DNA from: a virus | DNA: 64,000 nucleotides | Strand: one strand, 5' to 3' | Virus record (IMG/VR): IMGVR_UViG_3300045988_114753 | Shown here: in pieces, positions 21,164-53,012 of the stretch | Layout: every line of letters starts with the position of its first letter | Position numbering within the stretch: the first letter of the stretch is position 1 | Notes under the pieces: generated by a model | What the model saw: only the letters and a program-made list of their open reading frames with translations | Told to the model about the DNA's origin: nothing | Database searches by the model: none | Translations under genes and position numbers: made by a program

Positions 21164-21192
21164 ATTCTAACATATATCTTAAGATTTGTCAA
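21164..21192 (-). promoter_or_regulatory. sigma-A-like promoter (TTGACA-17-TAGAAT)
   Basis: rc of 21187-21192 is TTGACA; rc of 21164-21169 is TAGAAT; 17-nt spacer. Confidence 0.65.
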
Positions 21193-21199: not shown

Positions 21200-21228
21200 T
21201 TGACAAATTCGTATTTTTTTGTTATAAT
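21200..21228 (+). promoter_or_regulatory. sigma-A consensus promoter (TTGACA-17-TGnTATAAT) for the 21.2-27.2 kb operon
   Basis: TTGACA at 21200-21205 and TATAAT at 21223-21228 with TG at 21220-21221. The two divergent -35 boxes form the palindrome TTTGTCAA-N7-TTGACAAA. Confidence 0.75.
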
Positions 21229-21264
21229 ATGTATGTAAGGTAGGATAAAGAGAGGAGGTCTGTG

Positions 21265-21855
21265 ATGACAACTATTTATGTTGATTTTGATAATACAATA
21301 GTCGAGAGTAATCAGAAGATTATTGAGTTATTAAATGAAAGATATGGTTTATCTAAAACAGAAGCAGATTTACTTGATTACGGATACCAATCCATAGCTC
21401 CAATTACCGAAGAAGAAAAAATTGCGTTATTTGAGAGCGATGACTTTTTTAATAATTTAAAATTTAAAAGTGACTTTTTAAAAGTTTTTAATAAATACTG
21501 CGGGCAAGTAGAATTTATTGTTACTACAAAAGGCACTCCGAATAATTTATTAAAAAAAGAAGCCTGGATTAAAGAACACATCCCATATCAGGTGAAATTT
21601 GTTGGTATAACTAATGACAGCCTAAGTAAAAAACAAGTTGATATGTCAGATGGTATACAGATAGATGATTGTACGGCGGCTTTAGACACAAACGCTAGTT
21701 TAAAGATTTTATACAAAGACAATCATAATTTTAGTTGGCAGTCTGATTATAGTAATACAGATATAATGGTTGTAAATAATTGGAAAGAAATAGATGAAAT
21801 AATATCTTTCTATTCCACATATGATTATAAAACATTAAGTAAAAAAGGAGAGTAA
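21265..21855 (+). CDS. HAD-superfamily hydrolase, 5'(3')-deoxyribonucleotidase-like
   Basis: N-terminal IYVDFDNTIV (DxDxT nucleophile motif) and late IQIDDC (DD motif). Size fits NT5C-type nucleotidases. Confidence 0.55.
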   Translation: MTTIYVDFDNTIVESNQKIIELLNERYGLSKTEADLLDYGYQSIAPITEEEKIALFESDDFFNNLKFKSDFLKVFNKYCGQVEFIVTTKGTPNNLLKKEAWIKEHIPYQVKFVGITNDSLSKKQVDMSDGIQIDDCTAALDTNASLKILYKDNHNFSWQSDYSNTDIMVVNNWKEIDEIISFYSTYDYKTLSKKGE

Positions 21856-21858: not shown

Positions 21859-22401
21859 ATGAAGAAAATAATTTTATTTAGTGGTAAAGCAGAAAATGGT
21901 AAAACTACAGCCGCTGAATTATTAAAGGATATTTTGGAGTCTGAAGGTCAAAGTGTTGTCATTACGAGATACGCTTATTACCTAAAGGATTTAGCAAAAA
22001 GATATTGTAATTGGGATGGACAAAAAGATGAGGCTGGTCGTCGTTTATTACAAGTATTAGGGACTGATATTATTAGGCAAAAATTAAACAAGCCAAATTT
22101 TCACGTTGGTGGAATTTGTGAAGATATAGAGATATGCCAAGATTGCGTGGATTATGTTTTAATTGATGATACAAGATTTGAAAATGAGATATATTATCCA
22201 AAGGCTATGTTTGGTGATAAGGTGGTAGCAATAAGAGTAATAAGAACTACGCCAGATTTTCATTCGCATCTTAGTGAAGAGCAACTAAATCATAGAAGTG
22301 AGACGGCATTAGATAACTTTAAAGGTTTTGACTTCGTGGTTGAAGCGAAGGATATTGATGAATTAAAGTCTGCTATGCAAGAATTAAGTAAATCTATTTA
22401 G
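21859..22401 (+). CDS. deoxynucleoside monophosphate kinase
   Basis: P-loop SGKAENGKTT. RRLLQVLGTDII closely matches the RRLMQALGTDLI segment I recall from T4 gp1. LIDDTRFENE fits the family. Confidence 0.7.
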   Translation: MKKIILFSGKAENGKTTAAELLKDILESEGQSVVITRYAYYLKDLAKRYCNWDGQKDEAGRRLLQVLGTDIIRQKLNKPNFHVGGICEDIEICQDCVDYVLIDDTRFENEIYYPKAMFGDKVVAIRVIRTTPDFHSHLSEEQLNHRSETALDNFKGFDFVVEAKDIDELKSAMQELSKSI

Positions 22402-22414: not shown

Positions 22415-25165
22415 GTGACCAAAGTATTGCAAAATCAATACTATATATACAAGATACCATCCAACAAAATAACAAAGTTAAAAACGTACAGTTTTAAAGA
22501 AGCATCCAAAGATGGTTGCGTTGTCTCTATTGGTGATAATCTTGTATTAGCTAAAATTAGAGAATATTATGGGGAAAATGGTGACCACGTTTCTTTATAC
22601 AATAAAGTGCAAAATATACGTAAAGAAATGAAGAAAATTAGAAAGTTGCCTACAAGCACAGAAAATGTTGAAGCGATTAGAAATCTTCAATCACAGTTGG
22701 ATAATCTATTGTTTGTAGACGATATAGTAAATATAAAAGTAGTTACAAAAAAAGAATATAGGGAGTTAGGAAGAAAAGGCTTTGACTTAAACGGTAAACA
22801 TTATGTGAGATTTATGGTTGGTTCAGGTCAAATGCGTAGAAACACAGTAACATTTATTAATGAAGAATTATTTGATTATATGCAAGAAAGACTTATGTGT
22901 GGTCTTAGTGGTAAAATTAAGACAATTAATTTAGCTAAATTATCTGCATATTTTGCATTATCTTTTTCATCTGTACTTTGGGTTAGAGAACCTAGGGTGT
23001 GTGTTATAAAAGATTTTGACACTGTAATACCAAATCAAAAATTGAACTGGATAAACAAGGGTGAAGATGGTAATACGGTTACACAGATTTATAAAGATAT
23101 TAAATTAAATAGTGCTGATGGACAAGGGTTAATTAGTCCAGAGATGGCTAAATTGTGGGCTGAGGATATGCACTTAAATTATGTGCCTTGTTCATTTGTT
23201 GTTAGGACGGCATTTGTAAAAGGTAATCTTGTACCATTTGATTTTAAAGAATACGCTAAAGAACACGGTGTCACCACTATCAAAGATAGATATGGTACCG
23301 AATATAATGTTGAAGATGTAGATGTTCTTTTATCAGAAAGCCAATTTAAGATGGCTAAGTATTATTCATCTTGGGAAGGATATTTAAGTTATCATAAAGC
23401 CTATAATTTAAAATGGGGCGTTGCTCGTTATAATAAAGAGTTTGATGATGAGTATGTTCTAACTAACTATCAATATATTCAAGTGTTAAACTTAAATAAG
23501 GAAGACATAGATGGTTTAATATCATATACAACAAATTGGATAAAAAATATTTGTAGTGGTAATTTAGAATATGCTTTGACTTACAATGTGGGGGTGAAAA
23601 ATCCAGCATTGAGTGTAGATAGCATAATTAATTCTTGTGGTAGCACTTTTACTAAGGCAATTATTAAAAATCCAGAGATGTTGAAAGATGGATTTGTTCA
23701 AAGAAAAATATATAACTCTATAAAAGAGAGTATAAGACAAGCGAAGATTGGTCGTATATGGGTTAAAGGCAATTATTCTTTTATGATTAGTGACCCCGTT
23801 GCTCAATGTAGAAGTGCATTAGGTTTAAGTCCTGATGGCTTATTACCAGCCAATCACGTATATGGAAATTTCTGGAACGAGCGAGATATTTCTGGCGAGG
23901 TGTGTCTTTTAAGAAGCCCATTGACACATTATTCAGAAGTCAATGTACAAGAATTGTCTAATACAGAAGAAATGCAGAAGTGGTATAAATATATATATAG
24001 TGGCATAATTTATAATATTTATGATATTAGTGTCGTTAAGCACGCAGACTCTGATTTTGATGGCGACATTTGTATGGCGACAGATAATCCATATTTTCTT
24101 AAAGGAGCAAAAAGAGAAGAACTCCCAATTATGTATGACAAAGAAGCAGTTCCAACTCAAAAAATAACATTACCTAATCAAGTTAGATGTGATATTAAAG
24201 GGTTAGATACTAAAGTTGGTCAAATAACAAATTATTCTACTAGTATGTTGGCGATGTTACCATTGTTTAAGGGTGAGAAGCAACAAGACCAAAAGCAAGA
24301 AATAGAAACACGTTTAAAATTGCTTAGAGAGTTGCAAGGGGCAGAAATTGATAAAATTAAAGGAACCGCCCCACCAAACTTTCCAAAATCTTGGAGACAT
24401 TGGGTTCATATCAATAAGGATGACGACGATATAACTAAAGCTGAGAAATATAAATATAATTCTATGGTCGTAAAAAAGAAGCCGTACTTCTTTATATATT
24501 TGTATAGTACTCTAATGAATGATTATAAGAACTATGAAAAGAATTTCAATAGCATTAGTCTTACACATTTTGGCGTACCAATAAAAGTTTTGTTGAGAAA
24601 AAAAGACCATACAGAAGGAGAAATGAATTTGCTTAGAAAGTATCGTAAATATTCTCCAGTGCTAGAAACAGATTGTGTAATGAATATTTTGTGTAAAGAA
24701 ATTGAAAATGTAGAGTTCGATATTAAGTACAAGCCAAATTGTACAAGTTTATTGCCAGAATTTGCTGACAGAACAGAAATCGATGAAGATAAAATAGTTA
24801 AGTTAATAGAATTATATAAAGGATATAAAGCTCAAAGAAAGTATAAAGGTATTGAAGCGTTGGTTGATAACGAAGGAATACAAGATGATGATATGAATGA
24901 GATATTGAGAGGGGTTTTATATGCTAACCGTGATGAATATAAAAACAATATGTTAGATTTATTTACGTCATCTAAAGAGTTATTTAATCATCTAGTAGTT
25001 ATGTGTGAGCGAAACAACTGGTCTTGCGATTGTATTTGGGATATTGTTGGTGATGATATTGTAGATATTATACCTTATGGAAATACACAGGTCGTAGTAG
25101 AGGATGCCGACGGCTTTGAATATTTGGGACGTAACTATAAATTAGAGGAGGTAAAGAGATGTTAA
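22415..25165 (+). CDS. YonO-like single-subunit double-psi beta-barrel RNA polymerase (putative)
   Basis: 916 aa. ADSDFDGD at codons 543-551 (nt 24047-24067 encode DSDFDGD), the metal-chelating signature of the beta-prime NADFDGD / RdRP DxDGD class. Size is similar to SPbeta YonO. GTG start with GGAGGAG SD. Confidence 0.6.
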   Translation: MTKVLQNQYYIYKIPSNKITKLKTYSFKEASKDGCVVSIGDNLVLAKIREYYGENGDHVSLYNKVQNIRKEMKKIRKLPTSTENVEAIRNLQSQLDNLLFVDDIVNIKVVTKKEYRELGRKGFDLNGKHYVRFMVGSGQMRRNTVTFINEELFDYMQERLMCGLSGKIKTINLAKLSAYFALSFSSVLWVREPRVCVIKDFDTVIPNQKLNWINKGEDGNTVTQIYKDIKLNSADGQGLISPEMAKLWAEDMHLNYVPCSFVVRTAFVKGNLVPFDFKEYAKEHGVTTIKDRYGTEYNVEDVDVLLSESQFKMAKYYSSWEGYLSYHKAYNLKWGVARYNKEFDDEYVLTNYQYIQVLNLNKEDIDGLISYTTNWIKNICSGNLEYALTYNVGVKNPALSVDSIINSCGSTFTKAIIKNPEMLKDGFVQRKIYNSIKESIRQAKIGRIWVKGNYSFMISDPVAQCRSALGLSPDGLLPANHVYGNFWNERDISGEVCLLRSPLTHYSEVNVQELSNTEEMQKWYKYIYSGIIYNIYDISVVKHADSDFDGDICMATDNPYFLKGAKREELPIMYDKEAVPTQKITLPNQVRCDIKGLDTKVGQITNYSTSMLAMLPLFKGEKQQDQKQEIETRLKLLRELQGAEIDKIKGTAPPNFPKSWRHWVHINKDDDDITKAEKYKYNSMVVKKKPYFFIYLYSTLMNDYKNYEKNFNSISLTHFGVPIKVLLRKKDHTEGEMNLLRKYRKYSPVLETDCVMNILCKEIENVEFDIKYKPNCTSLLPEFADRTEIDEDKIVKLIELYKGYKAQRKYKGIEALVDNEGIQDDDMNEILRGVLYANRDEYKNNMLDLFTSSKELFNHLVVMCERNNWSCDCIWDIVGDDIVDIIPYGNTQVVVEDADGFEYLGRNYKLEEVKRC

Positions 25166-25944
25166 TATTTGATGAAAAAAAATATGCAGAGAATATAATT
25201 AACAATAAGAGATATGAAACCGTCAAGACGCAAGGTAGAGAGCGTTGCGTCTTAGTTAGATATTTAACATCTCTAAACTATTCTGTAGAGGAGATAAAAA
25301 AGGTTCTTTCAGAAATACCTATGTCTGGCGGTGAATATTTATCTTCAAAAGATAAAGATGTAATTTTTTCAAAGATTATTGCTAAGGCTAATGAATATGA
25401 GTTTGTAACTAATAAAGTTGTTAAGATATATCAATCTGAACTTGATATTATAGAACAGGTTGAGGATGATTATGCTAGGCATCTATTATTTGTTTATTTA
25501 GTGTATTATAAATGGGCTTCTACTGTCTCTCATTTACAATTTTATAGCAAAAAGAATGATATTATGATGGTAACTGAAAATAATAATGATGTTTGGAAAT
25601 TGGCAGGGTTATCGAAGCTAAGAGTAGCAGATAGGTATAGACTTTGTAATTTGTTATTTAATAAAGGACTTTATAAAATAGATAATTTTAAAGCCTATAA
25701 TTATATCTACATTCCATTTGTCAAGGATGATGGAGATGTGGCTATAGAGATTTCAAACTTTGATAATATACTAGGTGAATTATTAATTTATGAAAAGCCA
25801 ACCGAATATAAAAGATGTGTTATTTGTGATACCGTAATCAAAAAAACTCGTTCTCCTAAAAAGTACTGTATTAATTGTGCTTATAAGGAAAACCTAAGAA
25901 AAACAAAGGAAAGAAAAAGGGGTTTGAAAACCCAAACTTCTTAA
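25159..25944 (+). CDS. hypothetical protein with C-terminal zinc ribbon (261 aa)
   Basis: Overlaps the RNAP stop. CVICDT...CINCAY followed by a basic tail. Confidence 0.6.
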   Translation: MLIFDEKKYAENIINNKRYETVKTQGRERCVLVRYLTSLNYSVEEIKKVLSEIPMSGGEYLSSKDKDVIFSKIIAKANEYEFVTNKVVKIYQSELDIIEQVEDDYARHLLFVYLVYYKWASTVSHLQFYSKKNDIMMVTENNNDVWKLAGLSKLRVADRYRLCNLLFNKGLYKIDNFKAYNYIYIPFVKDDGDVAIEISNFDNILGELLIYEKPTEYKRCVICDTVIKKTRSPKKYCINCAYKENLRKTKERKRGLKTQTS

Positions 25945-25956
25945 ACCCCTTATTTT
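25917..25956 (+). terminator. possible terminator hairpin
   Basis: AAGGGGTTT-17 nt-AAACCCCTT followed by ATTTT. The large loop makes it uncertain. Confidence 0.35.
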
Positions 25957-26038
25957 ACTAGGCAAACGTACGTTCTATTAAAAAATATTATTAATGAAAG
26001 AGAAAAATAAGAAAATCCAGTAAAAAAGGAGAGTATAT

Positions 26039-27217
26039 ATGGAAGCATTTAAAAGATTAGAAAATGAAGACGAAAATGCGTACATATGGCGTGTGTGTGA
26101 CAATAAAGATTTAATAGGTACTTGGCAAGACGTTTGTGATTTATTAAATTCAGAATTAAATCACGATTATAATGAGTCTTGGTACAGAAAGATGTATCAA
26201 AGTTTTATGATGATGTTTGATGCGATAAAAAGTAAATATTTCGATGATGAACAAATACATAAAATAGAACAGAAAAAACAAGAACTTATTAAAGAGCGTT
26301 TTCGTTTAAACGATGAACGTGTAGCGTATAATAGAGCATTACGCAATGACGCAAGATTAGAAAGTAGATTAGATAAATTAGAGGAAGCTATATTGGACTT
26401 TGGTAAAGAAGCCTATGTTAGTAGTCCAGTAAAAACTATAAAATCCGACAATGATTTATTAGTTATTTTGAGTGACCTCCATATAGGACAGACGTTTGAT
26501 AGTTTTGGTGGTAAATATAATACAGACATAGCAAAGCAAAGATTGTGTAAATATTTAGACGAGATAATTGCTTTAAGAGATATATATAATTCTGAAAATT
26601 GTTATGTGTCTTTACAAGGGGATTTAATTAGTAATTCAATTCATAAGACTATAGCAATTACCAATCAAGAGAACGTCATACAACAAATTAAAAAAGCTAG
26701 TGAACTTGTTACTATGTTTGTTTATGAATTAAGTAAACATTTTAATAAGGTTATGGTTACAAGTGTAAGCGGTAATCATTCACGTTTAGATAAAAAAGAA
26801 GACGCACTGAAAGATGAGCGTTTAGATGATATTGTGATTTGGTATATGAATGCTGCTTTAAGTGGTGTAAACAATGTAGAATTAAAGACAAACAATGAAG
26901 ATAGCACTTTTGCTGAAATGGATATTAGAGGAAAAAAGTACATTAATGTTCACGGAGATTATGACGCTTTTTCTAAAGCTGGTATAGCAAGTTTGTCAAT
27001 GATGTTAGGATATTTCCCATATGCTATCACATTTGGACACCTACATACTTGTGCTATGCAAGATGAGGGTGGAGTAAAAATAATTAGAGGCGGTAGTCTG
27101 GCTGGTAGTGGCGATGATTATACAATTCAAAAAAGATTACCTGGAAATGCTACACAAATGGTCTGCGTTTGTACTGCTGACGGTATAAAATCATATAATG
27201 TTATAGAACTAAGTTAG
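26039..27217 (+). CDS. calcineurin-like metallophosphoesterase (Mre11/SbcD-like nuclease)
   Basis: Ordered motifs LSDLHIG, QGDLISN, SGNHSR, VHGDYD and FGHLH. N-terminal coiled-coil region. Confidence 0.65.
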   Translation: MEAFKRLENEDENAYIWRVCDNKDLIGTWQDVCDLLNSELNHDYNESWYRKMYQSFMMMFDAIKSKYFDDEQIHKIEQKKQELIKERFRLNDERVAYNRALRNDARLESRLDKLEEAILDFGKEAYVSSPVKTIKSDNDLLVILSDLHIGQTFDSFGGKYNTDIAKQRLCKYLDEIIALRDIYNSENCYVSLQGDLISNSIHKTIAITNQENVIQQIKKASELVTMFVYELSKHFNKVMVTSVSGNHSRLDKKEDALKDERLDDIVIWYMNAALSGVNNVELKTNNEDSTFAEMDIRGKKYINVHGDYDAFSKAGIASLSMMLGYFPYAITFGHLHTCAMQDEGGVKIIRGGSLAGSGDDYTIQKRLPGNATQMVCVCTADGIKSYNVIELS

Positions 27218-27232: not shown

Positions 27233-27258
27233 TTTTTTTGAAAGAAAGGTGAATGCAC

Positions 27259-28092
27259 GTGGCAACTAAATATAAGAAGCCTATAAAAAAAGTTGAGGGT
27301 CAACAAAAAGTTATTTGTCAAAATAAAGATTGCGATAAAATGGGCAAGCACTTAAGTGTAGATGATTTTTATAAATCACGTAATGCTATGGTGCAACACC
27401 ATCCTTATTGCAAAGATTGTGTTAATAAAATGATTGACGTTAATAATTTAGAGTCAGTATATAGTGTATTAAAAGTGTTGGATACTCCTTTTATAATGGA
27501 TATTTGGAATGACGTATGTAATTCTGGTACAACCAATTATATGGGAGATTATTTAAGGGCTATAAATTTTACATATAGAAAAAAATATGCAGGTATGGGT
27601 TTTGACGATAGTATATTTGAATTATCTGAAAATGAAGAGATAAGTGATAATGTACAGGCTGCTTTTGATGATACTCCAGTTTGGAGTGATGATTGGCAAG
27701 GTAAATACACTAAGTCTGATTTAAAATATTTAAACGATTATTATAATGGATTACAAAATGACTTCAAAATAATTACTACAAATCATAAAGATTATGCTAG
27801 AAAAATTGCTCAAGCATCTTTGTCTCAAATGAAAGCATATCAACATTTATTACAAGGTGAAGAGGGTGCTGACTTGGCATATGAAAAAGCTACTAAAATA
27901 TTTGATATGTTATCTAAATCAGCTCAATTTGCTGAAAGCCAACGTGGAGCTAATGATGTTGCTTTAGGTTGTTTTGGTAGAGTATTTGATGCAGTTGAAA
28001 AACACAATTGGGTTCCAGAGTATATTCCAACTGACGAAGATATGTATGATAAGTTATTAAATCAATTCTCCAATATTGAGAGGAGTTTATAA
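27259..28092 (+). CDS. putative small terminase subunit (position-based), Cys-rich N-terminus
   Basis: Lies immediately upstream of and abuts the large terminase gene. GTG 27259 lies 6 nt after AAGGTGA (the ATG at 27253 has zero spacing). CQNKDC...CKDC. Confidence 0.45.
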   Translation: MATKYKKPIKKVEGQQKVICQNKDCDKMGKHLSVDDFYKSRNAMVQHHPYCKDCVNKMIDVNNLESVYSVLKVLDTPFIMDIWNDVCNSGTTNYMGDYLRAINFTYRKKYAGMGFDDSIFELSENEEISDNVQAAFDDTPVWSDDWQGKYTKSDLKYLNDYYNGLQNDFKIITTNHKDYARKIAQASLSQMKAYQHLLQGEEGADLAYEKATKIFDMLSKSAQFAESQRGANDVALGCFGRVFDAVEKHNWVPEYIPTDEDMYDKLLNQFSNIERSL

Positions 28093-29852
28093 TGGCTTCA
28101 TATAAAAATTTTAGTCAAAAAAGAAGAGCTGCACAAACTTGGGCATATAATAACACTGATAATCCATTAAGTTATGACCCAATTAATAGTGAAAAAATTG
28201 ACTATGAAGAATGGACAAAATTCTTATCATATTATAGATATTATATAGATAAATTCGCCGTAGATATTTTAGGAGTAAACTTATTTCCATTTCAAAGATT
28301 AATAATGAGGGCTATGGCAAGATACCCTAATGCAATGTTAATATGTTGTCGTGGTTTAGGTAAATCTTGGTTATGTGCTTTATTTATGATATGTATGGCA
28401 ATTCTTTATCCTGGTATGGCTGTCGGAATTGTTTCTGGAAACGGAAATCAAGCACGTATGGTTATTAAACAAAAAATAGAGGGCGAGTTGCAAAAGAACG
28501 AGAATATTAAGAGAGAAATATCAAACATAAAGACGAGTACCGATGACTGTATAGTAACTCTCAAAAACGGTAGTTCTATACGTGCTATTACTTTAGGTAC
28601 TAATCAAAAGGGTGACAATGCTCGTGGTTGGCGTTTCCAATTGGTTTTGGTGGATGAGGCGAGATTGGTTAAAGATAACACTTTAACAGAGGTTATTCGC
28701 CCGATGATAAAAACACCAAGACAAAATGCAATTGATTTACACGACAAATATCCAGAGAACCCTATAGAGAAGGGTAGAATGATTTATATTTCTTCTGCTT
28801 GGTTAAAGACTTGTGACTTATACCAAAAGTTTTTAAATTTCTATCATTCAATGATTAGCGGAGATAAGCACTACTTTGTAGCAAGCTTGGATTATAAAGT
28901 AGGAATTGATGCAGGTTTATTTTCTCAAGAAGAAATAGATATAGAAAAAGAAAGTCCAGATATGTCTTTAGATAAATTTGCTTATGAATATGAAGGAACA
29001 TTTGTTGGTAGTTCTAACGATAGTTATTATCCATATTCATTAACAAATAAATGCCGTGTCTTAGATAGGTGTGAATTATTACAACCTAAGAAGACACAGT
29101 ATGCATATGTAATTACACACGACGTTGCCGTATCAACTAAGGCTGGCTCCGATAATTCGTGTACACACGTTATTAAGTTAATACCAAAAAGTAATGGTAC
29201 ATTTGATAAGCACGTTGTTTTTACAAAGACATTAAATGGAGCTAGTTTAAAAGAACAAAGGGACTTATTGCGTGAGTTATTACATATTAGGTTCCCTAAT
29301 ACAGAAAAACTCGTAATTGACGTTCGTAGTGCTGGACAAGGTTTGCTTTCTTTATTGGAAGAGCCTTGGTCTTATCGTAATGAAAGAGGAGATATTGAAG
29401 AATATCCACCATTAATTCAGGACGATGACGAAGAGACAATGAGAACTTTGCCTAACGCAGAACCAATTATTAGAGGTATTCAAGCAACCGCTGATTTTAA
29501 CAGCACTTATTATCCTTATATGAAAAGTTGTTTTGAAGACCAGAGTTTAAAATTATTAGTTGATAGTAATGAGACAGATGAACTATATAAAGCTGGAAAG
29601 TATACAGCCGAAGAACAAGTAATGCACGTTGAACACGATAATTTAATGCAAGAGCTTAGTAATATTAAAAGAGACTTCGGTCTTAATGGTCAGATATTAT
29701 ATGACCGTATTGTTAAATCTGCTAAACGTGACCGTGCGACATCTTTAATGTATGGGTTATCTGTTGTATTTGAATATGAAAAACAAGGTAAAGCCGATAT
29801 AGGTAGAACAGAAGTTGACACCTTAAAATATTTGGCTGAATACATTTATTAG
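28092..29852 (+). CDS. terL: terminase large subunit
   Basis: 586 aa. Walker A-like CCRGLGKSW and Walker B QLVLVDEA. Followed by a portal-sized gene. Confidence 0.8.
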   Translation: MASYKNFSQKRRAAQTWAYNNTDNPLSYDPINSEKIDYEEWTKFLSYYRYYIDKFAVDILGVNLFPFQRLIMRAMARYPNAMLICCRGLGKSWLCALFMICMAILYPGMAVGIVSGNGNQARMVIKQKIEGELQKNENIKREISNIKTSTDDCIVTLKNGSSIRAITLGTNQKGDNARGWRFQLVLVDEARLVKDNTLTEVIRPMIKTPRQNAIDLHDKYPENPIEKGRMIYISSAWLKTCDLYQKFLNFYHSMISGDKHYFVASLDYKVGIDAGLFSQEEIDIEKESPDMSLDKFAYEYEGTFVGSSNDSYYPYSLTNKCRVLDRCELLQPKKTQYAYVITHDVAVSTKAGSDNSCTHVIKLIPKSNGTFDKHVVFTKTLNGASLKEQRDLLRELLHIRFPNTEKLVIDVRSAGQGLLSLLEEPWSYRNERGDIEEYPPLIQDDDEETMRTLPNAEPIIRGIQATADFNSTYYPYMKSCFEDQSLKLLVDSNETDELYKAGKYTAEEQVMHVEHDNLMQELSNIKRDFGLNGQILYDRIVKSAKRDRATSLMYGLSVVFEYEKQGKADIGRTEVDTLKYLAEYIY

Positions 29853-29869
29853 GAAAGGCAGGTGTAATA

Positions 29870-31465
29870 ATGAGTAAGAAAAAAGATAATAATAAGGTTC
29901 TTTTGTCTGAGAATGAAGTTGTAGAAACTTTAGAAGCTGTACAAAGAGCGTTTGATGTATTAGATTTCGCTAAAGGATATAACGATGGTGTTTATAGTCC
30001 TATGACGCAAAATACATTAATGAAGAATTTAAACATTTCTTCTGTTGTACCAGATAGAGCTGGCATTGAAGAAGCATTAAAAGACCCAGCAAATCACGAA
30101 ACGTCATTAGTATCTTATGGTCAGTCATATTATTTTAGCAGTCTAATGTATAAACGTAATTTAGAATACATTGCGAATTTACCTGCTTTTGACCTAGAAA
30201 TGACTTGTATCAATGCTACAGCCGCTGATTATAACACAACCAAATATAAAAACGATTATAAAGCCATTGCAAACTTTCTGGATAAATTTGATTATAGAGC
30301 TCAATTTAAAGAGGTTCTATGGAATTTATTAATGGAAGAAACATATTATGGTATCTTTAGAACGTTTGACAGCAAAAGCGTATTACAACAATGGCCTTGG
30401 AAGTATGCTAAAGTCACTGGTAAATTTGAATATGGTTTATTATATGATATTGATATGAACTATTTTTTACAAGGGGTTGTAGACTTAAACTGCTATCCAG
30501 ATTGGTTAAAAAAGAAATATAAAGAGGTTTTTAGTGCTGATACAAACGCTTATAAGCCAGGTAATAAATTGAATAATAGAACTGGTAAATTTGCAACTTG
30601 GGTTCAAACATCACCAGAAGAAGGTTTTTGGTGTTTTAAATTTAATCCAAAACATTCATTACAGGTTCCATTCTTTAGTGCAATGTTGCCAGAGATGGCT
30701 ATTGTTCCTTTAATGAGAAGATTGCAAGTTGACCAAAGTATGGCTGCTGCTCGTAAATTATTAGTAAGTTCAGTGCCATATTTAAAAGAGAAGAAATCTT
30801 CTAGTGTCGCTAATCAATTAGCTATTGATGCCGATGTTTTAGGTAAATTTATCGGTTTAGCAGCACAAGGAATTGAGAATGCTATTAAGATTTTAGCATT
30901 ACCAACAGAAGATATTAAGGGTGTAGAATTTGAAAATACAGATAAAGACACCTATAAAAACTTTATGGCAATTACAAGTTCATTATTAAGTGGAGGTAAG
31001 GTAATATTCTCTACTGATGAAAATCAAAATGCCATAGAGACACAATTATCATTGAATTTAGATGAGCTATTAGCAGAGTCAATTTATCCTCAATTTGAAG
31101 AATTTTTAAATTATTTTGCAAATAAAGAAACAAAAAAGTTTAAATGGAAATTTAGATTTGTTGGATGTAATGACCAATTTGATAGACTAAGACGCCAAAA
31201 TGAAGCTTTCACTTATGCCGATAAAGGTGTCGTGTTACCAAATAAGATAGCGTCGTCTTTAGGATTAAATAAAATAGAACTAGAAAGAGAACTAGAAGAG
31301 GCAAATGCTACAGGGTTTACTGATAAGTTAATGATGATGGTCAATATAAATACAATGTCGCCTAATAATGCTGGTCGTCCCACTAAAGACGATGCAGATT
31401 TAACAGACAGCGGGGCAAAGACTAGGTCTAATGCTTCAAATATTGAAAAAGGTGGAAAGGTTTAA
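29870..31465 (+). CDS. portal protein
   Basis: 531 aa, directly downstream of terL. Assigned by size and position. Confidence 0.65.
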   Translation: MSKKKDNNKVLLSENEVVETLEAVQRAFDVLDFAKGYNDGVYSPMTQNTLMKNLNISSVVPDRAGIEEALKDPANHETSLVSYGQSYYFSSLMYKRNLEYIANLPAFDLEMTCINATAADYNTTKYKNDYKAIANFLDKFDYRAQFKEVLWNLLMEETYYGIFRTFDSKSVLQQWPWKYAKVTGKFEYGLLYDIDMNYFLQGVVDLNCYPDWLKKKYKEVFSADTNAYKPGNKLNNRTGKFATWVQTSPEEGFWCFKFNPKHSLQVPFFSAMLPEMAIVPLMRRLQVDQSMAAARKLLVSSVPYLKEKKSSSVANQLAIDADVLGKFIGLAAQGIENAIKILALPTEDIKGVEFENTDKDTYKNFMAITSSLLSGGKVIFSTDENQNAIETQLSLNLDELLAESIYPQFEEFLNYFANKETKKFKWKFRFVGCNDQFDRLRRQNEAFTYADKGVVLPNKIASSLGLNKIELERELEEANATGFTDKLMMMVNINTMSPNNAGRPTKDDADLTDSGAKTRSNASNIEKGGKV

Positions 31466-31477
31466 GGAGGTTAGAGT

Positions 31478-31996
31478 ATGAGTGAAGGACTTATTTCAAA
31501 AGAAATGAAAGCGTCTTTGGAAGAAATAATTTCACACTGTTTTTATAGCAATCGTATGCTTGATAGAATGTGTAGTATTTTATCCGTAACTTTCGTAATG
31601 CCTATCACATCTAATATTCTTCATCACAAATTAGCACATCTTTATCCAGTATTAGCAGATGATATTTCTGACTATATGGATGCTAGAGATTGCACTACAG
31701 TTTATGGAGAAACTCCTAAAGGAGACCAAGATTATGATACAGCATTAGATTGTTTTAATAAGATGCTAGAAATTAATTTAAAATTGGAGTCGTTAGTAAA
31801 AGACTCTATTACTTTGGCACAAAATATGAATGATTATAGTACTAAAGTAATGTTAGAACAATTTATATTAAAAATTACTCATATCACAAAAGATATTTTA
31901 TTATTAGTTGATAAAGCAGAAATGTATGGAGACAGTGATGCTTCTATGATGAAGTTTGACCACGATATGCCATCATTTAATGTTTTTGGAGAGTAG
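31478..31996 (+). CDS. hypothetical protein (172 aa)
   Basis: AAGGAGG SD; head module. Confidence 0.6.
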   Translation: MSEGLISKEMKASLEEIISHCFYSNRMLDRMCSILSVTFVMPITSNILHHKLAHLYPVLADDISDYMDARDCTTVYGETPKGDQDYDTALDCFNKMLEINLKLESLVKDSITLAQNMNDYSTKVMLEQFILKITHITKDILLLVDKAEMYGDSDASMMKFDHDMPSFNVFGE

Positions 31997-31997
31997 T

Positions 31998-32207
31998 ATG
32001 TTTATTTCTAATTTAGACAATAAAGATAAAAAATATTATGAATGTGGTAAGATTGTGGGTAATTATTTAATTAAAAATGGCATTCCAATGTTGGCACGTG
32101 AAAATGGGCTAATGTTGTTTGCAAAAACAAAAAGACTTCAAAAGGTCATTGATGATATGCCTTTGTATTTACAACTTCTAATTAAAGGGGGTGTTATCAA
32201 TGGATAA
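31998..32207 (+). CDS. hypothetical protein (69 aa from ATG 31998)
   Basis: ATG 31998 follows GGAGAG, 1 nt after the previous stop. Confidence 0.5.
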   Translation: MFISNLDNKDKKYYECGKIVGNYLIKNGIPMLARENGLMLFAKTKRLQKVIDDMPLYLQLLIKGGVING

Positions 32208-33669
32208 AAAGATTTCTTTTGAAGTACAAGGATTTGATGTTATAGACGATTATTCAGATAATCAATTTGCTATTGCTGAAATTTATGTATGTCACGATGG
32301 CAATAATCTGCATAATATGCCTATTGACTTATCCGTAATCAAAAAAGCAAAAAGGACTTTAAAAAATAAATTCTTAGTTGCTGGTTTTGATGGAGATGAC
32401 TTTGAGGGTCACGAGCCTGATGAACTAATTGTGGGCGTCTTTCCAGAAAGTTCAGAGATGAAATTCGTTGAGAAGAATGGAAAGACTTATCTTGTTGCTC
32501 AAGCCATCATTTCTAAAGTTTATGCAAAATGGGCTTATGATGTGTTTGTAGAAGATGAAGATAACGAGAGAGCTGTTTCAATGGAAATTACTGTGTTAGG
32601 TACAGAATTACAAGATGATGGATTAGAACATATTACTAAATTCGTATTTAATGGGGTAACTTTACTTGGAGAGTCTCATATGCCCGCCTGTGAAGGCAGT
32701 AATGCGTCTATAATCAAGTTCAGTAAGGAAAACGCATTGAAAGTTTACAGCAAGCGTTTAAAAAATTCTGAAAAGATTAAGAAGAATTTTGTTAGAGATA
32801 TGGAGCTTGCAGAAATTTCAAGAAAGGAGGAGAGCGAAGAAATGGAAGATAAAGAAAAAGAAGTTGTAGAAACAGTTGAAGAAGAAGTTAAAGAAACTCC
32901 AGTGGAAGGAACTGAAGAAGTTAAAGAAACTGAAGAATTTGCAAAAGAAGCTTCTGACGATGAAACTTATATGGAAGAAGATGAGTCTGAAAAAGAAGAA
33001 GACGATAAGGATGACGAAGAAAAGTCTGATGAGGAGTCTGACGAAAAAGAAGACGAAGAAGACGACGATAAGGACGAAAAGGAAGAAGATATGGAATGCA
33101 ACAAAGACTTCGAGTCATTAACTGTTGAACAAAAATATGAAGTATTCCGCTCTGCTGTTGAAGAGTCTCTTGATGGATGTGGATATTTAGAGTCTTATGA
33201 CGATGAATATTTATATGTTTATGATTATTGTGACGGAAATACTGTCAGATATGCTTATACTTTAGATGGTACTACTTGTACTATCGATGTAGACTCTAAA
33301 ACAAGAGTAATGCGTGGTGGTTATGTAGAATTTGAAGTGTATGAAGAAGACAATAATAAATTAGAGACACTTGAAAAAGAAAACTGCGAGCTTAAGGAAA
33401 AACTTATGGCTTATGAAACAGCTGAAAAGGAAAAATCTGTTGAAGCTATTTTATCAGAAGTAGTCGACGTAATTCCTGCTGACCGCATCGCAGAACTTCG
33501 TGAAAAATCTGCTGATTTCTCTTTAGATAATTTGTCAGTATTTGAAAACGAAGTAAAAGCAATCGCTTTTGAAGCTGTTGCAAAAGAAGTTAAAGGTAGT
33601 AAGTATAGTTTTACAAAAATGCCTATTAACAACGAAATGGAAAAGAAGACATCTAAATATGGATGGTAA
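32200..33669 (+). CDS. scaffolding-like protein with Glu/Asp/Lys low-complexity linker (possible prohead protease fusion)
   Basis: Lies between portal and capsid genes. About 90 aa of acidic low complexity (EEMEDKEKEVVETVEEEVKET...DDDKDEKEED). C-terminal coiled coil. Confidence 0.45.
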   Translation: MDKKISFEVQGFDVIDDYSDNQFAIAEIYVCHDGNNLHNMPIDLSVIKKAKRTLKNKFLVAGFDGDDFEGHEPDELIVGVFPESSEMKFVEKNGKTYLVAQAIISKVYAKWAYDVFVEDEDNERAVSMEITVLGTELQDDGLEHITKFVFNGVTLLGESHMPACEGSNASIIKFSKENALKVYSKRLKNSEKIKKNFVRDMELAEISRKEESEEMEDKEKEVVETVEEEVKETPVEGTEEVKETEEFAKEASDDETYMEEDESEKEEDDKDDEEKSDEESDEKEDEEDDDKDEKEEDMECNKDFESLTVEQKYEVFRSAVEESLDGCGYLESYDDEYLYVYDYCDGNTVRYAYTLDGTTCTIDVDSKTRVMRGGYVEFEVYEEDNNKLETLEKENCELKEKLMAYETAEKEKSVEAILSEVVDVIPADRIAELREKSADFSLDNLSVFENEVKAIAFEAVAKEVKGSKYSFTKMPINNEMEKKTSKYGW

Positions 33670-33705
33670 GAAAAAAATAATTAATTTTGAAAGGAGAAAT
33701 AAAAA

Positions 33706-34242
33706 ATGGCAAAATCAATTTTAATTCCAACTCTAGTTGCTGCTAAAAATATCGATAGCTTAAATAGAAGTTTCGTTTCTACAGCAGACTTAGATAACGG
33801 AAATGTATTTGGAAAAGGAGAACTTTCAACTAATGCTGGTGAAAGTCAAGTTTATAAAACAGTTACACCTGCTACAGGAAGCTTATCTGGATTATATATG
33901 GCATTCTCTGCTGAAGATGTTGTATTAACTGATGATTTAGGAAATCAATTCAAAGTTGGTACATTAGACCCAAGAGCTTTCACAAACAAAGCTGGTACAG
34001 TATTTAGTGGATTTAAACCACAAGTAGGAGATTTAGTTTTAATTTCTGCTGATGGTATTTCAGGAGACGCTGCTGCTTACGCTGTTGCTGCAAATGGAGC
34101 TAGTCAATTAGCATTTGCTGAAGCTGCTGGTGCTGGATTAAGTTTCAAAGTTGTTGAAACTACTTATATTTCACTTGCTAGTGCAAATAATATTGGTTCT
34201 CAAAGAGTTCCTGCTTATTTATTAGAATGTGTAGCTAACTAA
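33706..34242 (+). CDS. head structural protein (decoration or scaffold-like, 178 aa, Ala/Gly-rich)
   Basis: Very strong SD (GAAAGGAGAA). Immediately upstream of the capsid gene, with a near-identical translation-initiation region. Confidence 0.45.
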   Translation: MAKSILIPTLVAAKNIDSLNRSFVSTADLDNGNVFGKGELSTNAGESQVYKTVTPATGSLSGLYMAFSAEDVVLTDDLGNQFKVGTLDPRAFTNKAGTVFSGFKPQVGDLVLISADGISGDAAAYAVAANGASQLAFAEAAGAGLSFKVVETTYISLASANNIGSQRVPAYLLECVAN

Positions 34243-34353
34243 TTTGAGTCATCAATCAAGGCTAATAACAAGTAAATATACACAGTTCGTATATCACTAT
34301 TTATAAAAGTGTAAAAAATAAATAATTTATTAATTTTGAAAGGAGAATATAAA

Positions 34354-35451
34354 ATGGCAAAATTACCAAATAGTGTCTTAGCTTTCACAGCAGATAGTGC
34401 TGATAGAAAAGAAGGATACACAAACTTTGTAGAATACTACAATTTATATAAAGAAGGAAAAACTCAAAATGCCAATGGTGTTAGTTTTTCTGAAATGAAC
34501 GAAAAAATGTTAACATTCTTCTCTGATGAAGTAGCAAGATTATCAGGAAAGAAACAATCAGACGTACCTGATTTAGCAACTTATTGCAACTTCAGTGACG
34601 TTAAAGAAGCTGCTTTTGCAGTAGTTGGTATGTTAACTGATTTAATCATCCCAGATGCTTTAATTAAAGATTTAGGAATGATTGCTGAAATCAAAAACGG
34701 TGGATGGGGAGACAGTTTAAAAGTTGAACTTAAACCAAGAGATTTATTCGTTGTATCAAAAGGCGGAAGAAATCGTAGAACTTATGACGTAACTCGTCAA
34801 TTCAAAGGTGAAAAGACTATCGTTCCTGAGTCAAGAGGAATTACAGTTGGTATTTCTTTATATGACGTATTAAAAGGAACTTATTCATTAGCAGAATTTG
34901 TTGCTAAAGCAGTATTATCTATGGAAATTCAAATGAAATATGATATTTATGATGCTTTCGCAGCAGCTATGAATGCACTTCCAAACACAACTGGTGCTAG
35001 TCAATTAAGAATTAGTGGTTTCTCTCAAGACACTGCTATCGCTTTAGCACAAAAAGTTCAAGCTTGGAATGGTGGAGCTAAACCAGTTTTCTTAGGAACT
35101 AAATTAGCTTTATCTAAAATCTTACCAGCATCAACTAATGCTCGTATCTTATTAGGAGACGAATATGTTAAAGTTGGTTATATGAGAGACTTTATGGGTA
35201 TCTCAACTATTGAATTAGAACAAGTTGCAGACTTTACTACTGAATTTGCAGTAAAATTAGATGATAAGAAAATCTATGTAATCTGCCCAGGTACTGATAA
35301 AATGGTTAAAGTATTCGTTGAAGGTTCTACATTATCTAATGTTGATGGTAACTATGCAAATGCTAACTTAACTCAAACAGCTACATTATATAAATCTTAT
35401 GGTGTAGGTGCTATTAGTTCAGCATTAGCAGGTGTTATTGAATTAGCTTAA
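34354..35451 (+). CDS. major capsid protein
   Basis: 365 aa from ATG 34354 (GAAAGGAGAA SD). Followed by a strong terminator. Assigned by position in the head module. Confidence 0.6.
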   Translation: MAKLPNSVLAFTADSADRKEGYTNFVEYYNLYKEGKTQNANGVSFSEMNEKMLTFFSDEVARLSGKKQSDVPDLATYCNFSDVKEAAFAVVGMLTDLIIPDALIKDLGMIAEIKNGGWGDSLKVELKPRDLFVVSKGGRNRRTYDVTRQFKGEKTIVPESRGITVGISLYDVLKGTYSLAEFVAKAVLSMEIQMKYDIYDAFAAAMNALPNTTGASQLRISGFSQDTAIALAQKVQAWNGGAKPVFLGTKLALSKILPASTNARILLGDEYVKVGYMRDFMGISTIELEQVADFTTEFAVKLDDKKIYVICPGTDKMVKVFVEGSTLSNVDGNYANANLTQTATLYKSYGVGAISSALAGVIELA

Positions 35452-35475
35452 TTGTAACACAAAAGAATATTAGAG

Positions 35476-35506
35476 GAGAGGCTTCATAAGAGCCTCTCTT
35501 TATTTT
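35476..35506 (+). terminator. intrinsic terminator after the capsid gene
   Basis: GAGAGGCT-7 nt-AGCCTCTC followed by TTTATTTT. Confidence 0.75.
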
Positions 35507-35533
35507 AATTTAGAAAAAAAGGAGAGATAAATA

Positions 35534-36157
35534 ATGGCAAATACTAAAACAAGTGCAAAAAATAATAGTGATGCAAAAAAGATTAAAGAGTTAGAAAAGA
35601 CAATTTCAGATTTAAACGCTGTAGTTCAAATGTTAATGAAGCAAGGAGTTTCAACTCCAACAGTTGAAACAGAAGGCGAAAGAGATGTAGTATTTATTTC
35701 TTTATGTAATCATATACTTAATCTTTCTACTGAACCAAATGGAGGAGGCACTATTTATACTTTCACTGAATTTGGTGAAGAGCAAGCTATTCCTTATTCT
35801 GATGCTAGAAAAATAATTAAAAACAATAAAAGTTTTATTAAAGGTGGTAAGTGTTACATTGCTGATGATAAGATTATCAACACAGAACATTTAACTAGCG
35901 ATTATAAAAAAATTCTTAGTAAAGATGATTTATTGGATTTATTATCATCAGATAGGGTTAAATTTAGAAATATCTTTGATAAAATGACACCAACTCAACA
36001 AGAAATATTCAGAGATGTTGTTGTTGATAAATTATCTAAAGATAAAAACAGTGTAGATATGAATATTGTTCAATATATAAATGAGTCTTTAAATATCGAT
36101 ATTTTAAAAAGTATTGATTATAACAAGGAGTTGTTGGTTGTTAAAGACGAAAACTAG
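35534..36157 (+). CDS. hypothetical protein (207 aa)
   Basis: AAGGAGAG SD; head/connector module. Confidence 0.6.
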   Translation: MANTKTSAKNNSDAKKIKELEKTISDLNAVVQMLMKQGVSTPTVETEGERDVVFISLCNHILNLSTEPNGGGTIYTFTEFGEEQAIPYSDARKIIKNNKSFIKGGKCYIADDKIINTEHLTSDYKKILSKDDLLDLLSSDRVKFRNIFDKMTPTQQEIFRDVVVDKLSKDKNSVDMNIVQYINESLNIDILKSIDYNKELLVVKDEN

Positions 36158-36171
36158 AGGAGGCTGGGAAT

Positions 36172-36627
36172 ATGACACCATATGATGACATATTGGATTT
36201 AGCGTTAGTCTCTATTGAAGATTATAGATTGAATAAACTTTCTACAGACTCGCCAGCTGAATTTAAGTTGATTTTAGAGGGATTTATGATTAGAGGGTTA
36301 TCTAATTTTGAAAACTGTATAAAAGACCTTTCTGACAGAGATGATGAAGCACATCAATTCAATGTTGTTCTTGATGATTTAGAAAAGTCAATTATCGCTG
36401 ACTGGACTGCTATTATGTGGTTAGATAAAGAGATAAATGACACTCGTCAAATTACATCTATGCTACAGAATAGAAATGAAGCTCATAGATACTCTGAAGC
36501 TAACAACTTAAAAGCTAAAGCCGACCATCGTGTACAAATGGTTGAAGATGTTAAACATAAGCAAACAACTTATAGTTTAAAACACGCAGATTGGAAGGGG
36601 TGGGCTAGTGGCAACTATCAATTATAA
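36172..36627 (+). CDS. hypothetical protein, head-tail connector region (151 aa)
   Basis: GAGGAGG SD; position only. Confidence 0.55.
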   Translation: MTPYDDILDLALVSIEDYRLNKLSTDSPAEFKLILEGFMIRGLSNFENCIKDLSDRDDEAHQFNVVLDDLEKSIIADWTAIMWLDKEINDTRQITSMLQNRNEAHRYSEANNLKAKADHRVQMVEDVKHKQTTYSLKHADWKGWASGNYQL

Positions 36628-36976
36628 AGATTTTCAATTAGATGATAACGCAACAGTGCAATCATTAAAAATCTTAATAAATCAATGTTGGAAAACTCTT
36701 CCTATATTTGAAGGAAAAAATAAAGAAAACCAAATTGTTTATTCTCGTGAGGAGGCATATGAGAATTATCAAAAACATTTGTGTTTTTTAATTACTAAAG
36801 TCTCTGGTGCAAGTAAAATTTGGCAGGATAATCAATATTATGTAGAACTTGTTTATATCTTAGTTGGTATGCAAGATTTTACAGAAGATGAGCACGACAG
36901 AGTAAAATATATAGTGCATCATTGTACCAAACTTATCAACAATATGATAGAGATGGTATTAAACGATGAGTCTTAA
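36608..36976 (+). CDS. hypothetical protein (122 aa)
   Basis: GTG start after AAGGGGTGGG; overlaps neighbours. Confidence 0.55.
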   Translation: MATINYKDFQLDDNATVQSLKILINQCWKTLPIFEGKNKENQIVYSREEAYENYQKHLCFLITKVSGASKIWQDNQYYVELVYILVGMQDFTEDEHDRVKYIVHHCTKLINNMIEMVLNDES

Positions 36977-38255: not shown

Positions 38256-38803
38256 TGATTAGTGATGTAAAACCATATGCTATATATGAAAACCTACCTA
38301 ATATTTCTTATAGAATAATTGAATATTTAATGACTAGCCCAGATGCTGAAATCATATGGAAATTATTAAAGTATGATGACGCCGATGCATATAGTCGCCC
38401 TAATTTAACTTTAGAGGAAAAATCAAAGTTAATATATAATGGTGAAGCGGTATTGTCTAAATATAATGTATTTTTTGATTATATGATGGACGACGCTGAA
38501 GACCAAATGAAAACTTTACTACGAATTTATCCAGCAGAAGTTTACCCAACAACTAGAGTCACTGGTATATGCACAGTGAATTTAGAGGTATTTACGCATA
38601 GCAAAATAAATCATCTATCAAATTATACTACAAGGGTAGATGTCATCATACAAACACTTTTGAAGGTATTAAATGGTGCTGATGTTGGTGGTATTGGAGT
38701 TTTATTCTTTGATAATCAAGGTAGCCGTTATGACAGAATACAGACAATAGGACAAAAACCTTATAAAGGTAAATTGTTGAAAATGTCTGTTAATATGGGG
38801 TAA
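38255..38803 (+). CDS. hypothetical structural-module protein (182 aa)
   Basis: ATG overlaps the previous stop (TAATG). GGGGG SD. Confidence 0.6.
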   Translation: MISDVKPYAIYENLPNISYRIIEYLMTSPDAEIIWKLLKYDDADAYSRPNLTLEEKSKLIYNGEAVLSKYNVFFDYMMDDAEDQMKTLLRIYPAEVYPTTRVTGICTVNLEVFTHSKINHLSNYTTRVDVIIQTLLKVLNGADVGGIGVLFFDNQGSRYDRIQTIGQKPYKGKLLKMSVNMG

Positions 38804-38805
38804 TT

Positions 38806-39567: not shown

Positions 39568-39638
39568 AATATCTATGCTATTGGATATAAAATATAATAG
39601 CTTTATATAAAATATTATTTCATAAGGAGGAATTATAA

Positions 39639-40670: not shown

Positions 40671-40675
40671 TCATT

Positions 40676-40876
40676 ATGTATTGCAAGTATTGTCAATGTA
40701 TCACAAAGAGTGTATTTGAGCAGTATTTAAACTGCTCACTCTCTCGTGATTATTGTTTAAAACAGAAGTTCTGTCATAAAGAAAACAAACCTGTGCATAC
40801 AGATGATTGGCAAAAATGCCCTAGATTAGTAAAAGAGGAGGATAAGAATGAGAATTTTCAAAAACAAACAAAATAA
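40676..40876 (+). CDS. possible Cys-rich small protein (66 aa)
   Basis: ORF without a clear SD that overlaps the next gene. Doubtful. Confidence 0.3.
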   Translation: MYCKYCQCITKSVFEQYLNCSLSRDYCLKQKFCHKENKPVHTDDWQKCPRLVKEEDKNENFQKQTK

Positions 40877-41111: not shown

Positions 41112-41125
41112 TTTCTTCTCTTTAT

Positions 41126-41176: not shown

Positions 41177-41200
41177 AATATTGTTGATAGGAGGGGTCAA

Positions 41201-41830: not shown

Positions 41831-41848
41831 TTTTCAAGGAGGCTATCT

Positions 41849-42975: not shown

Positions 42976-42987
42976 GGAGGCTATACT

Positions 42988-43503: not shown

Positions 43504-43514
43504 GGAGGATTATT

Positions 43515-44029: not shown

Positions 44030-44065
44030 AGGAAATAACAAAAATTGAGGGAGGAGGCTGGGTTT

Positions 44066-53011: not shown

Positions 53012-53012
53012 C

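Follow-up and report, generated by a model that had tools for sequence, protein, structure and literature searches.

The stretch of viral DNA considered here (IMG/VR record IMGVR_UViG_3300045988_114753; 64,000 nucleotides (nt), referred to below as the window) carries a gene, R, which almost certainly encodes an RNA polymerase of the type of YonO from the Bacillus prophage SPbeta. R is overlapped at its end by a gene for a zinc-ribbon protein, S, and S is followed by a conserved cis element and then by the presumed late genes of the phage. It is likely, taking the lines of evidence together, that R is a YonO-family DNA-dependent RNA polymerase that is made with S and reads the late block, perhaps starting transcription at the element. 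The polymerase identity of R is secure; the assignment of the element as a promoter is the weakest step of the interpretation.

The polymerase R and its family

22415..25165, plus strand: R, a single, uninterrupted open reading frame (ORF) of 916 amino acids (aa) with a GTG start; YonO-family single-chain two-barrel RNA polymerase
23117-23119 (D235), 23204-23206 (R264), and 23219-23224 (K269-G270), plus strand: active site of the beta-like barrel of R, with the D-29-R-5-K spacing of QDE-1 D709/R738/K743
23912-23920 (R500-S-P502, in RSPLTH) and 24047-24067 (D547, D549, and D551, in DSDFDGD), plus strand: beta-prime-like barrel of R, equivalent to QDE-1 R962/P964 and D1007/D1009/D1011

The sequence AGGAGG is present 8-9 nt 5' of the GTG start. 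Re-reading of the ORF agrees with an original prediction, which had noted 916 aa with KHA and then DSDFDGD at residues 545-551 and had named the product a YonO-like single-subunit RNA polymerase. Profile, pairwise, and fold comparisons all place R in the YonO/QDE-1 family. The Pfam family PF05183 ('RdRP', covering QDE-1 and YonO) is hit with 69.6 bits (expectation value (E) 3e-19; gathering score 23.8), the match running from R residue 104 to 663, which is profile positions 47-555 of 582. By BLASTP there is 28% identity to YonO over 577 columns (approximately 550 aa; YonO residues 63-602) at E 3e-46. In PHROGs, R falls into a family of unknown function. In total 963 relatives were found.

Conservation was read from an alignment of 23 diverse homologues, down to 26% identity. 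D235, R264, K269-G270, R500, P502, D547, D549, and D551 are invariant in 23 of 23, and because this includes the three aspartates of DSDFDGD, that motif is not a chance match. Eight residues are invariant in all two-barrel polymerases (QDE-1 D709, R738, K743, R962, P964, D1007, D1009, and D1011; Ruprich-Robert and Thuriaux, PMC2919709). R holds counterparts of all eight, with active-site spacings of 29, 5, 2, and 47 against 29, 5, 2, and 45 in QDE-1. A mutant of YonO in the aspartate triad is inactive (PMC5467207). With a profile of the R family, the D..R..KG block is aligned to 'DGIGKIS..PSAFQIR....KG' of plant RDR2 (E 7e-4), which is reached by the family profile only, a PDB sequence search with R alone giving no match.

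The AlphaFold model of R, made from 16 sequences, has a predicted local distance difference test score (pLDDT) of 68.9. The original prediction would have been refuted had structure or profile comparison shown no double-psi beta-barrel pair. It survives this check, as in Foldseek against the PDB it is RDR2 and QDE-1 that come out on top, taking all of the first 21 places (probability 1.00, E 2e-12 to 3e-9). The alignments cover 800-950 columns at 11-14% identity, with a template modelling (TM) score of only about 0.35 because the model is of moderate quality. There are no other matches at E < 1e-8; crAss gp66 (E 0.25, probability 0.30) and then E. coli beta-prime follow. A multisubunit beta/beta-prime identity was rejected, as the motif reads HADSDFDGD and not NADFDGD, and the E. 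coli beta-prime fold match is at E 3.9; nor is there any Pfam or NCBIfam match to beta or beta-prime domains in R, such as would mark the large core that multisubunit enzymes have outside the barrels (clamp, flap/SBHM insert, and trigger loop). Identity as a crAss-like virion RNA polymerase was likewise rejected, given the weak fold match and the difference in length, the solved gp66 chain (6vr4_A) having 2,166 aa and R 916 aa. The gp66 protein of crAss-like phage phi14:2 (PDB 6vr4) is, like R, a phage single-chain two-barrel polymerase with a QDE-1-like core, but it measures approximately 2,200 aa and, as a protein carried in the virion, is responsible for the transcription of early genes, whereas the R gene needs host transcription first.

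QDE-1 and RDR2 (PDB 2j7n and 7w82) share with R the PF05183 domain, the fold (E ~1e-11), the eight active-site residues, and their spacing, but act in RNA silencing on RNA or single-stranded DNA, with no phage context and no S-like partner. That these eukaryotic enzymes are the best fold and profile matches might be taken to mean that R is an RNA-dependent RNA polymerase, as the Pfam name has it. Indeed, public records already give the label 'RNA dependent RNA polymerase' to close homologues of R, and the homologues of PMBT24 and Perkons are so annotated in GenBank. This is very improbable, however, since DNA templates are strongly preferred by YonO, the one phage member that has been characterised (PMC5467207), the genome consists of double-stranded DNA laid out in the classical early/late fashion, and QDE-1 copies DNA templates too (PDB 7y7t and 7y7r, by their entry titles). 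YonO is a processive DNA-dependent RNA polymerase that is expressed on induction (PMC5467207), and by analogy synthesis by R would be DNA-dependent. R has both barrels in one chain, as does YonO, with the same catalytic residues and homology over the catalytic region of about 550 aa, and differs in being of 916 rather than 839 aa, with a longer C-terminal helical region.

In some relatives the R gene is split inside the catalytic motif (L033 7684-8840, L034, L036, L039-L043, L073, and Clostridium phage c-st, L004 7677-8046), by inserts of 0.4-1.2 kb; there is no such split in the window. In the case of L033, where exon 1 ends in ...DSDFD, an ORF for a LAGLIDADG homing endonuclease (PF14528, 27 bits) is found in the insert, suggesting that a homing intron interrupts the active-site codons. 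No group I intron was called by Rfam. In L043 there is a HEARO RNA directly 3' of the polymerase gene and, a few kb on, a type-P5 twister and a pistol ribozyme (9342-9556, 13390-13439, and 14560-14625).

The zinc-ribbon protein S

25159..25944, plus strand: S, 261 aa; its ATG overlaps the R stop codon (ATGTTAA), a 7-nt overlap
25816-25878, plus strand: Cys4 zinc ribbon of S (C220, C223, C237, and C240), CxxC-13-CxxC near the C-terminus

That the ORF downstream of R overlaps it and encodes a zinc-ribbon protein had been noted before. The overlap is confirmed, and the protein ends in CxxC-13-CxxC. For comparison 80 viral and 28 genomic related loci were fetched. SPbeta is denoted L001, Bacillus phage BUCT082 L002, and c-st L004. 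Counted over 112 loci with the S family profile, S is present in 91. In most loci there is an S-type ORF of 230-320 aa that overlaps or abuts the polymerase stop, and these ORFs have CxxC-13..19-CxxC at their end, together with a K-Y-C signature. Across 30 sequences, reaching down to 14% identity, all four cysteines are invariant. The C-terminus of R itself has no zinc ribbon, the ribbon being carried by the separate protein, as in most relatives. An exhaustive profile search finds the S family in 1263 representative clusters, almost all standalone and of 240-290 aa, while Pfam and NCBIfam have no family that matches S.

The AlphaFold model of S (pLDDT 91.8) has a four-helix N-terminal domain, a winged-helix-like domain (approximately residues 104-198), the Cys4 ribbon, and a basic C-terminal helix. 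Its fold matches in the PDB are weak (E of at least 0.05) and are uniformly winged-helix DNA-binding proteins, including TFIIE. The best sequence match of the ribbon is to the RNA polymerase I subunit RPA12, at an E value of 0.022, which is not significant.

In an all-against-all comparison a resemblance emerged between the final 35-45 residues of YonO and the C-termini of S and its equivalents in BUCT082 and c-st; the c-st protein bears the GenBank annotation 'YonO homolog, C-ter only'. Against a profile of the S ribbon, the tail of YonO has a score of 30.6 bits. This was reached by none of 20,000 composition-preserving shuffles of the tail (maximum 14.2) and by none of 20,000 in which the cysteines were kept fixed (maximum 24.0). 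Immediately ahead of the ribbon, YonO aligns with the end of R (W875 region), so that YonO is a polymerase joined to only the ribbon of S. The difference between the two systems is therefore that YonO has its own C-terminal ribbon, while in the window the ribbon is on a separate 261-aa protein with two extra domains.

The original prediction had speculated that S could be a specificity factor. This now has comparative support, from the overlap or adjacency, the co-occurrence in 91 of 112 loci, and the domain fusion in YonO, which is good comparative evidence for a partnership, not proof of it. On these grounds S probably serves R as an accessory subunit or as an initiation factor, and the balance tips slightly towards its being a physical partner of the polymerase.

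The conserved element after S

25939..26007, plus strand: conserved bipartite cis element of approximately 65 nt, directly 3' of S; AAACCCCTT..ACTAGG, then TTAATGAAAGAG
25943-25951 (AAACCCCTT) and 25957-25962 (ACTAGG), plus strand: boxes forming the upstream part of the element
25991-26002, plus strand: core of the element, TTAATGAAAGAG, with the G at 25996, forming the downstream part

The 94-nt spacer between S and the next gene holds a block that is conserved within the window clade by phylogenetic footprinting, and in distant clades there is similar sequence at the same position after S. De novo motif discovery by expectation-maximisation on 51 non-redundant 220-nt regions 3' of S gave ttTTTtTATGAAAaAG, with the core T(0.86) A(0.97) T(0.99) G(0.74) A(0.77) and, after it, a purine-rich stretch devoid of C. 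With a leave-one-out matrix, a threshold of at least 9 bits, and a start 16-90 nt past the S stop, 30 of the 51 loci have a core site, against 3.4% expected from the intergenic background of the same loci (P ~4e-31, a value inflated by the phylogenetic relatedness of the loci). Sites are carried by 9 of 14 polymerase clusters, defined at 50% identity. When the sequences are anchored on the core a second part emerges approximately 48 nt upstream, AAACCCTTGAT..TACTGGGTTT, at a fixed distance. This is common to the window clade (as AAACCCCTTATTTTACTAGG), to Bacillus prophages, and to SPbeta, where it is just 3' of yonO.

A sequence model of the whole element, R1, has a single match in the window, at 25939-26007 (32.3 bits; the runner-up has 13.6). 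Over 100 loci it gives 41 matches at E <= 0.01, all on the polymerase strand, and 38 of these are directly after S, one per locus. A second model, R2, built without the window clade, has as its best match in the whole window, on either strand, the full-length site at 25941-26006, at a marginal 10.3 bits (E 0.047). An exact 19-mer and a 31-nt clade consensus of the element are unique in the window.

The element follows R and S whatever gene comes next, be it the YonJ-like gene in the window, HU in Bacillus clades, or tRNA genes in L047-L050. It is strictly co-oriented with the downstream genes, and the core is 15-75 nt upstream of the next feature, tRNA genes included. ORFs that begin at the ATG of the core have a median length of 11 codons and lack a Shine-Dalgarno sequence, so that this ATG is no gene start. 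A sigma-A reading of the core was rejected, there being no -35 box or TG, a G at hexamer position 4, and an A at position 6 in 60% of sites. From this sequence evidence the element may tentatively be regarded as the promoter of R, perhaps with S.

There is a serious case for a different function, in which R is of the YonO type but has its promoter or promoters elsewhere, and the element is a terminator or attenuator of R-S, an operator for autoregulation by S, or a signal for replication or packaging. Many loci do have a genuine hairpin with a T-run separating S from the core (z < -2 in 12 of 37), and the two boxes are mutually complementary, 70% of cells being paired. A pac site has been reported near yonR-yonP in SPbeta (PMC8270828). 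Yet the box hairpin has no covariation above that of shuffles, so that its structure is unsupported and the element was modelled by sequence only. The boxes and part of the loop keep their sequence without covarying, which points to sequence-specific recognition rather than to a terminator; it is sequence rather than structure that seems to be conserved. No Rfam family matched the window, and the spacer folded as RNA gave no significant structure (z -0.9). In SPbeta a separate stem-loop is annotated between yonO and the element. The strict co-orientation and the placement of the TATG/purine core, approximately 48 nt from the first box and shortly before the next feature, also speak against these other functions.

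The comparison with SPbeta bears on both readings. The SPbeta element is at L001 8405-8470, before yonN (HU), while the mapped YonO start, known as a primer bracket, is at L001 9141-9333. Since this is 700-900 nt further downstream, the element is not the published P_YonO. The bracket contains TCATTTATGAGGG, preceded by the inverted repeat AACTGC..GCAGTT, which is a resemblance only. A match of the window element to the bracket through CATTTATGARGGT, found twice in SPbeta and twice in BUCT082, was rejected; this sequence scores below 8.6 bits on the matrix, being absent from its top plus-strand hits, and the two phages are 94% identical there, so that its recurrence is resemblance and not evidence.

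Several further observations weigh against the interpretation as a whole, in addition to the distance of the element from the mapped SPbeta start, the inflated P value, and the marginal R2 match. The core motif has only about 10 bits, and with a matrix from which the window clade was excluded the window site is 40th of 128,000 positions. In the clade of L029 and L033 the YonJ-like gene is 13-57 nt past S, without a strong element, and in a clade with approximately 45% identical polymerases there is neither an adjacent S nor an element. For S there is no significant structural match in the PDB, and in the model of R the catalytic loops have a pLDDT below 50. The 16-nt matrix was rejected as a means of finding further promoters, as approximately 40 window positions score like the site after S.

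A broader reading would be that YonO-type polymerases are normally two-component, R with S as initiation or specificity factor, that the element is a family-wide promoter (AAACCCTTGAT..TACTGGGTTT, approximately 25 nt, then TATG and a purine-rich stretch), and that YonO is a derived form with only the ribbon fused. This is conceivable, though rather doubtful.

Between the two parts of the element, at 25965-25974, there is a perfect 10-nt palindrome, AACGTACGTT, and the pattern AAC-N4-GTT recurs in most close relatives (L006, L009, L012, L035, and L087). In L047, L048, and L050 (S stop +70 to +900), tRNA genes are found 15-25 nt 3' of the TATG core, before the YonJ-like gene; were the core a promoter, tRNAs would be the first products of the phage polymerase in these loci.

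The operon, the late block, and related phages

21192..21164, minus strand: divergent sigma-A-like promoter, TTGACA-17-TAGAAT with TG, back-to-back with the following one, for divergent operons
21200..21228, plus strand: sigma-A-type promoter of the operon holding R, TTGACA-17-TGnTATAAT, a 12/12 consensus match with upstream TG
21262..21855, plus strand: NT5C-like 5'-nucleotidase, gene 1 of the operon (PF06941, E 2e-10)
21859..22401, plus strand: deoxynucleoside monophosphate (dNMP) kinase, gene 2 of the operon (PF21448, E 2e-8)
26039..27217, plus strand: YonJ-like metallophosphoesterase/exonuclease, first gene after the element (25% identity to YonJ, E 5e-20; PF27386 YonJ_N)
27253..28092, plus strand: YonG-like protein (PF27269 YonG_N)
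28092..61156, plus strand: presumed late transcription unit, with large terminase (28092), portal (29870), structural genes, tape measure, a tail-fibre-like array, and endolysin
44594..49348, plus strand: tape measure gene of the late block
60032..61156, plus strand: endolysin gene, the last of the late block
61155..61181, plus strand: strong intrinsic terminator closing the late block, with an 11-base-pair stem, 5 G-C pairs, and a T-run; bidirectional
61201..61229 and 62341..62369: sigma-A-like promoters 3' of the terminator (10/12 with TG, and 12/12)
27.2 kb: terminator-like site, a 7-base-pair AT-rich stem with a T-run, below the G+C criterion of the scan
35473..35501: terminator, a clear hairpin with a T-run
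44000..44025: terminator-like site, an AT-rich hairpin with a T-run

The four genes from 21262 to 25944 are tightly packed, with gaps of 3 and 13 nt and then the 7-nt overlap. The nucleotidase and kinase pair matches phrog_139 in PHROGs (E 7e-23), and the YonJ-like and YonG-like pair matches phrog_284 (E 1.5e-63). The host-type promoter that the original prediction placed before the operon is real as a consensus match, being the sole 12/12 site on the plus strand between 17 and 61 kb, and from 21.3 to 61.2 kb no plus-strand site has more than 10/12 matches. The total number of promoter-like sites in the window is at the level of shuffled sequence. The terminators that had been listed are only partly confirmed: the one at 35.5 kb is clear, those at 44.0 and 27.2 kb are AT-rich hairpins with T-runs, and nothing convincing was found at 53.5 kb. 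The strongest terminator is that at 61155..61181. The late block comprises approximately 40 genes on one strand up to the strong terminator.

From this arrangement, host sigma-A RNA polymerase would transcribe the operon from 21200-21228, and as R and S are in one operon they would be made together. As an accessory subunit of R, S would then provide DNA recognition or assist initiation through its zinc ribbon and winged-helix-like domain. The complex may initiate at or near the TTAATG/AAAGAG core, at approximately nt 25996, and would go on to transcribe the 35-kb late block, from the YonJ-like gene to the endolysin, ending at 61155-61181.

A late role for R is suggested by YonO and by synteny. 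YonO is needed for 37 late genes of SPbeta, in one operon that starts upstream of yonK-yonJ (PMC5467207), and R, like yonO, is just upstream of a one-strand yonJ/yonG/terminase late block. By this parallel R is likely to transcribe the late genes. SPbeta differs in having an HU gene and a 1.2-kb leader between the polymerase and the late genes, neither of which is in the window; there is no homologue of yonK or HU in the window either. In BUCT082, a Spbetavirus, R and S (924-aa polymerase, 278-aa S) take the place of yonO. The BUCT082 polymerase is 25% identical to YonO, while a 1.55-kb stretch with the P_YonO bracket, the leader, and yonK is 94% identical (L001 9042-10575 against L002 7447-8996). 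This would suggest that R with S and YonO are interchangeable there, and it looks like the swap of a polymerase module in front of an unchanged control region. The 1.2-kb leader of both phages also contains a match to the Rfam DUF3800-VIII RNA (47.5 bits, gathering score 40.2; L001 10216-10281 and L002 8632-8697), the remainder of it carrying no annotation.

Alternatively R may transcribe few genes or have another task, such as priming or a regulatory RNA, with the host polymerase reading the structural block from 21200 or from weak promoters. In its favour, the spacer after S in the window has no strong terminator (z -1.8), and plus-strand sites with 10/12 matches do exist, for example at 39521..39548. 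It is nonetheless unlikely, as YonO is essential for the SPbeta late genes, the gene order is conserved with SPbeta, BUCT082 sets R and S before the SPbeta late leader, and read-through by the host polymerase could be impeded at 27.2, 35.5, and 44.0 kb, where there are terminator-like sites.

Notice was taken of YonO relatives in phages of Firmicutes from 2003-2010 onwards, and the characterisation of YonO itself followed in 2017 (Forrest et al. 2017, PMC5467207). The promoter sequence that it recognises, and whether it needs a factor, have been an open question since then (PMC5467207), and the literature search found no later paper on this. Nor did that search find any account of a separate S being the norm in the family, of its being fused in YonO, or of the element; all three are leads, not results. 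No smaller relatives of cellular RNA polymerases are known than the YonO-type enzymes, which are discussed as models of an ancestral polymerase of one chain. The window adds an abundant gut-phage lineage to the family, and the comparison yields a candidate partner protein and a candidate promoter of approximately 65 nt. If both are true, the outcome would be an orthogonal transcription system of small size and a first insight into how the YonO branch initiates.

In T7 and N4 a class of genes passes to an RNA polymerase that the phage makes itself and that uses compact promoters. At its end the T7 promoter has TATA and then the purine-rich start GGGAGA, and promoters of the N4 virion polymerase contain a short hairpin. 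Both features resemble the element, as a functional analogy only, since the T7 and N4 polymerases have unrelated right-hand folds and no sequence or family match to R.

The window has no megablast match among 50,697 phage records and is not close to any deposited phage at the DNA level. Proteins 98-100% identical are present on metagenomic contigs of 108-115 kb, which indicates an abundant uncultivated phage of approximately 110 kb. Its G+C content is 31.7%. It is a tailed phage whose host, going by the labels of metagenome-assembled genomes, can loosely be placed among low-G+C gut Bacilli or Bacillota. A closer host assignment from these labels was rejected, as they are inconsistent (Coprovivens, Bacilli, Clostridia, and even Methanobrevibacter). 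In phage records, relatives of R are found in a human faecal phage (33% identity), in BUCT082 (31%), in c-st, in Enterocloster phages, and in the SPbeta group, where yonO matches at 28% over residues 59-611.

Past the terminator at 61155-61181 a new gene block starts, which includes a Sak4-like annealing protein (62438..63316). Within the late block, at 53400-57250, there is a tandem array of approximately seven paralogous cassettes of 450-575 nt each, ending in a conserved ...GGxQAHNNxPPY..V..W(K/Y)R(T/V)* tail that resembles tail-fibre or collar-type C-termini. Runs of seven to nine G residues (GAGGGGGGGGCA..) are present in the array at 53415, 53595, 54102, 55604, 56070, and 56619, and could be slippage-prone tracts or mark variable receptor-binding genes.

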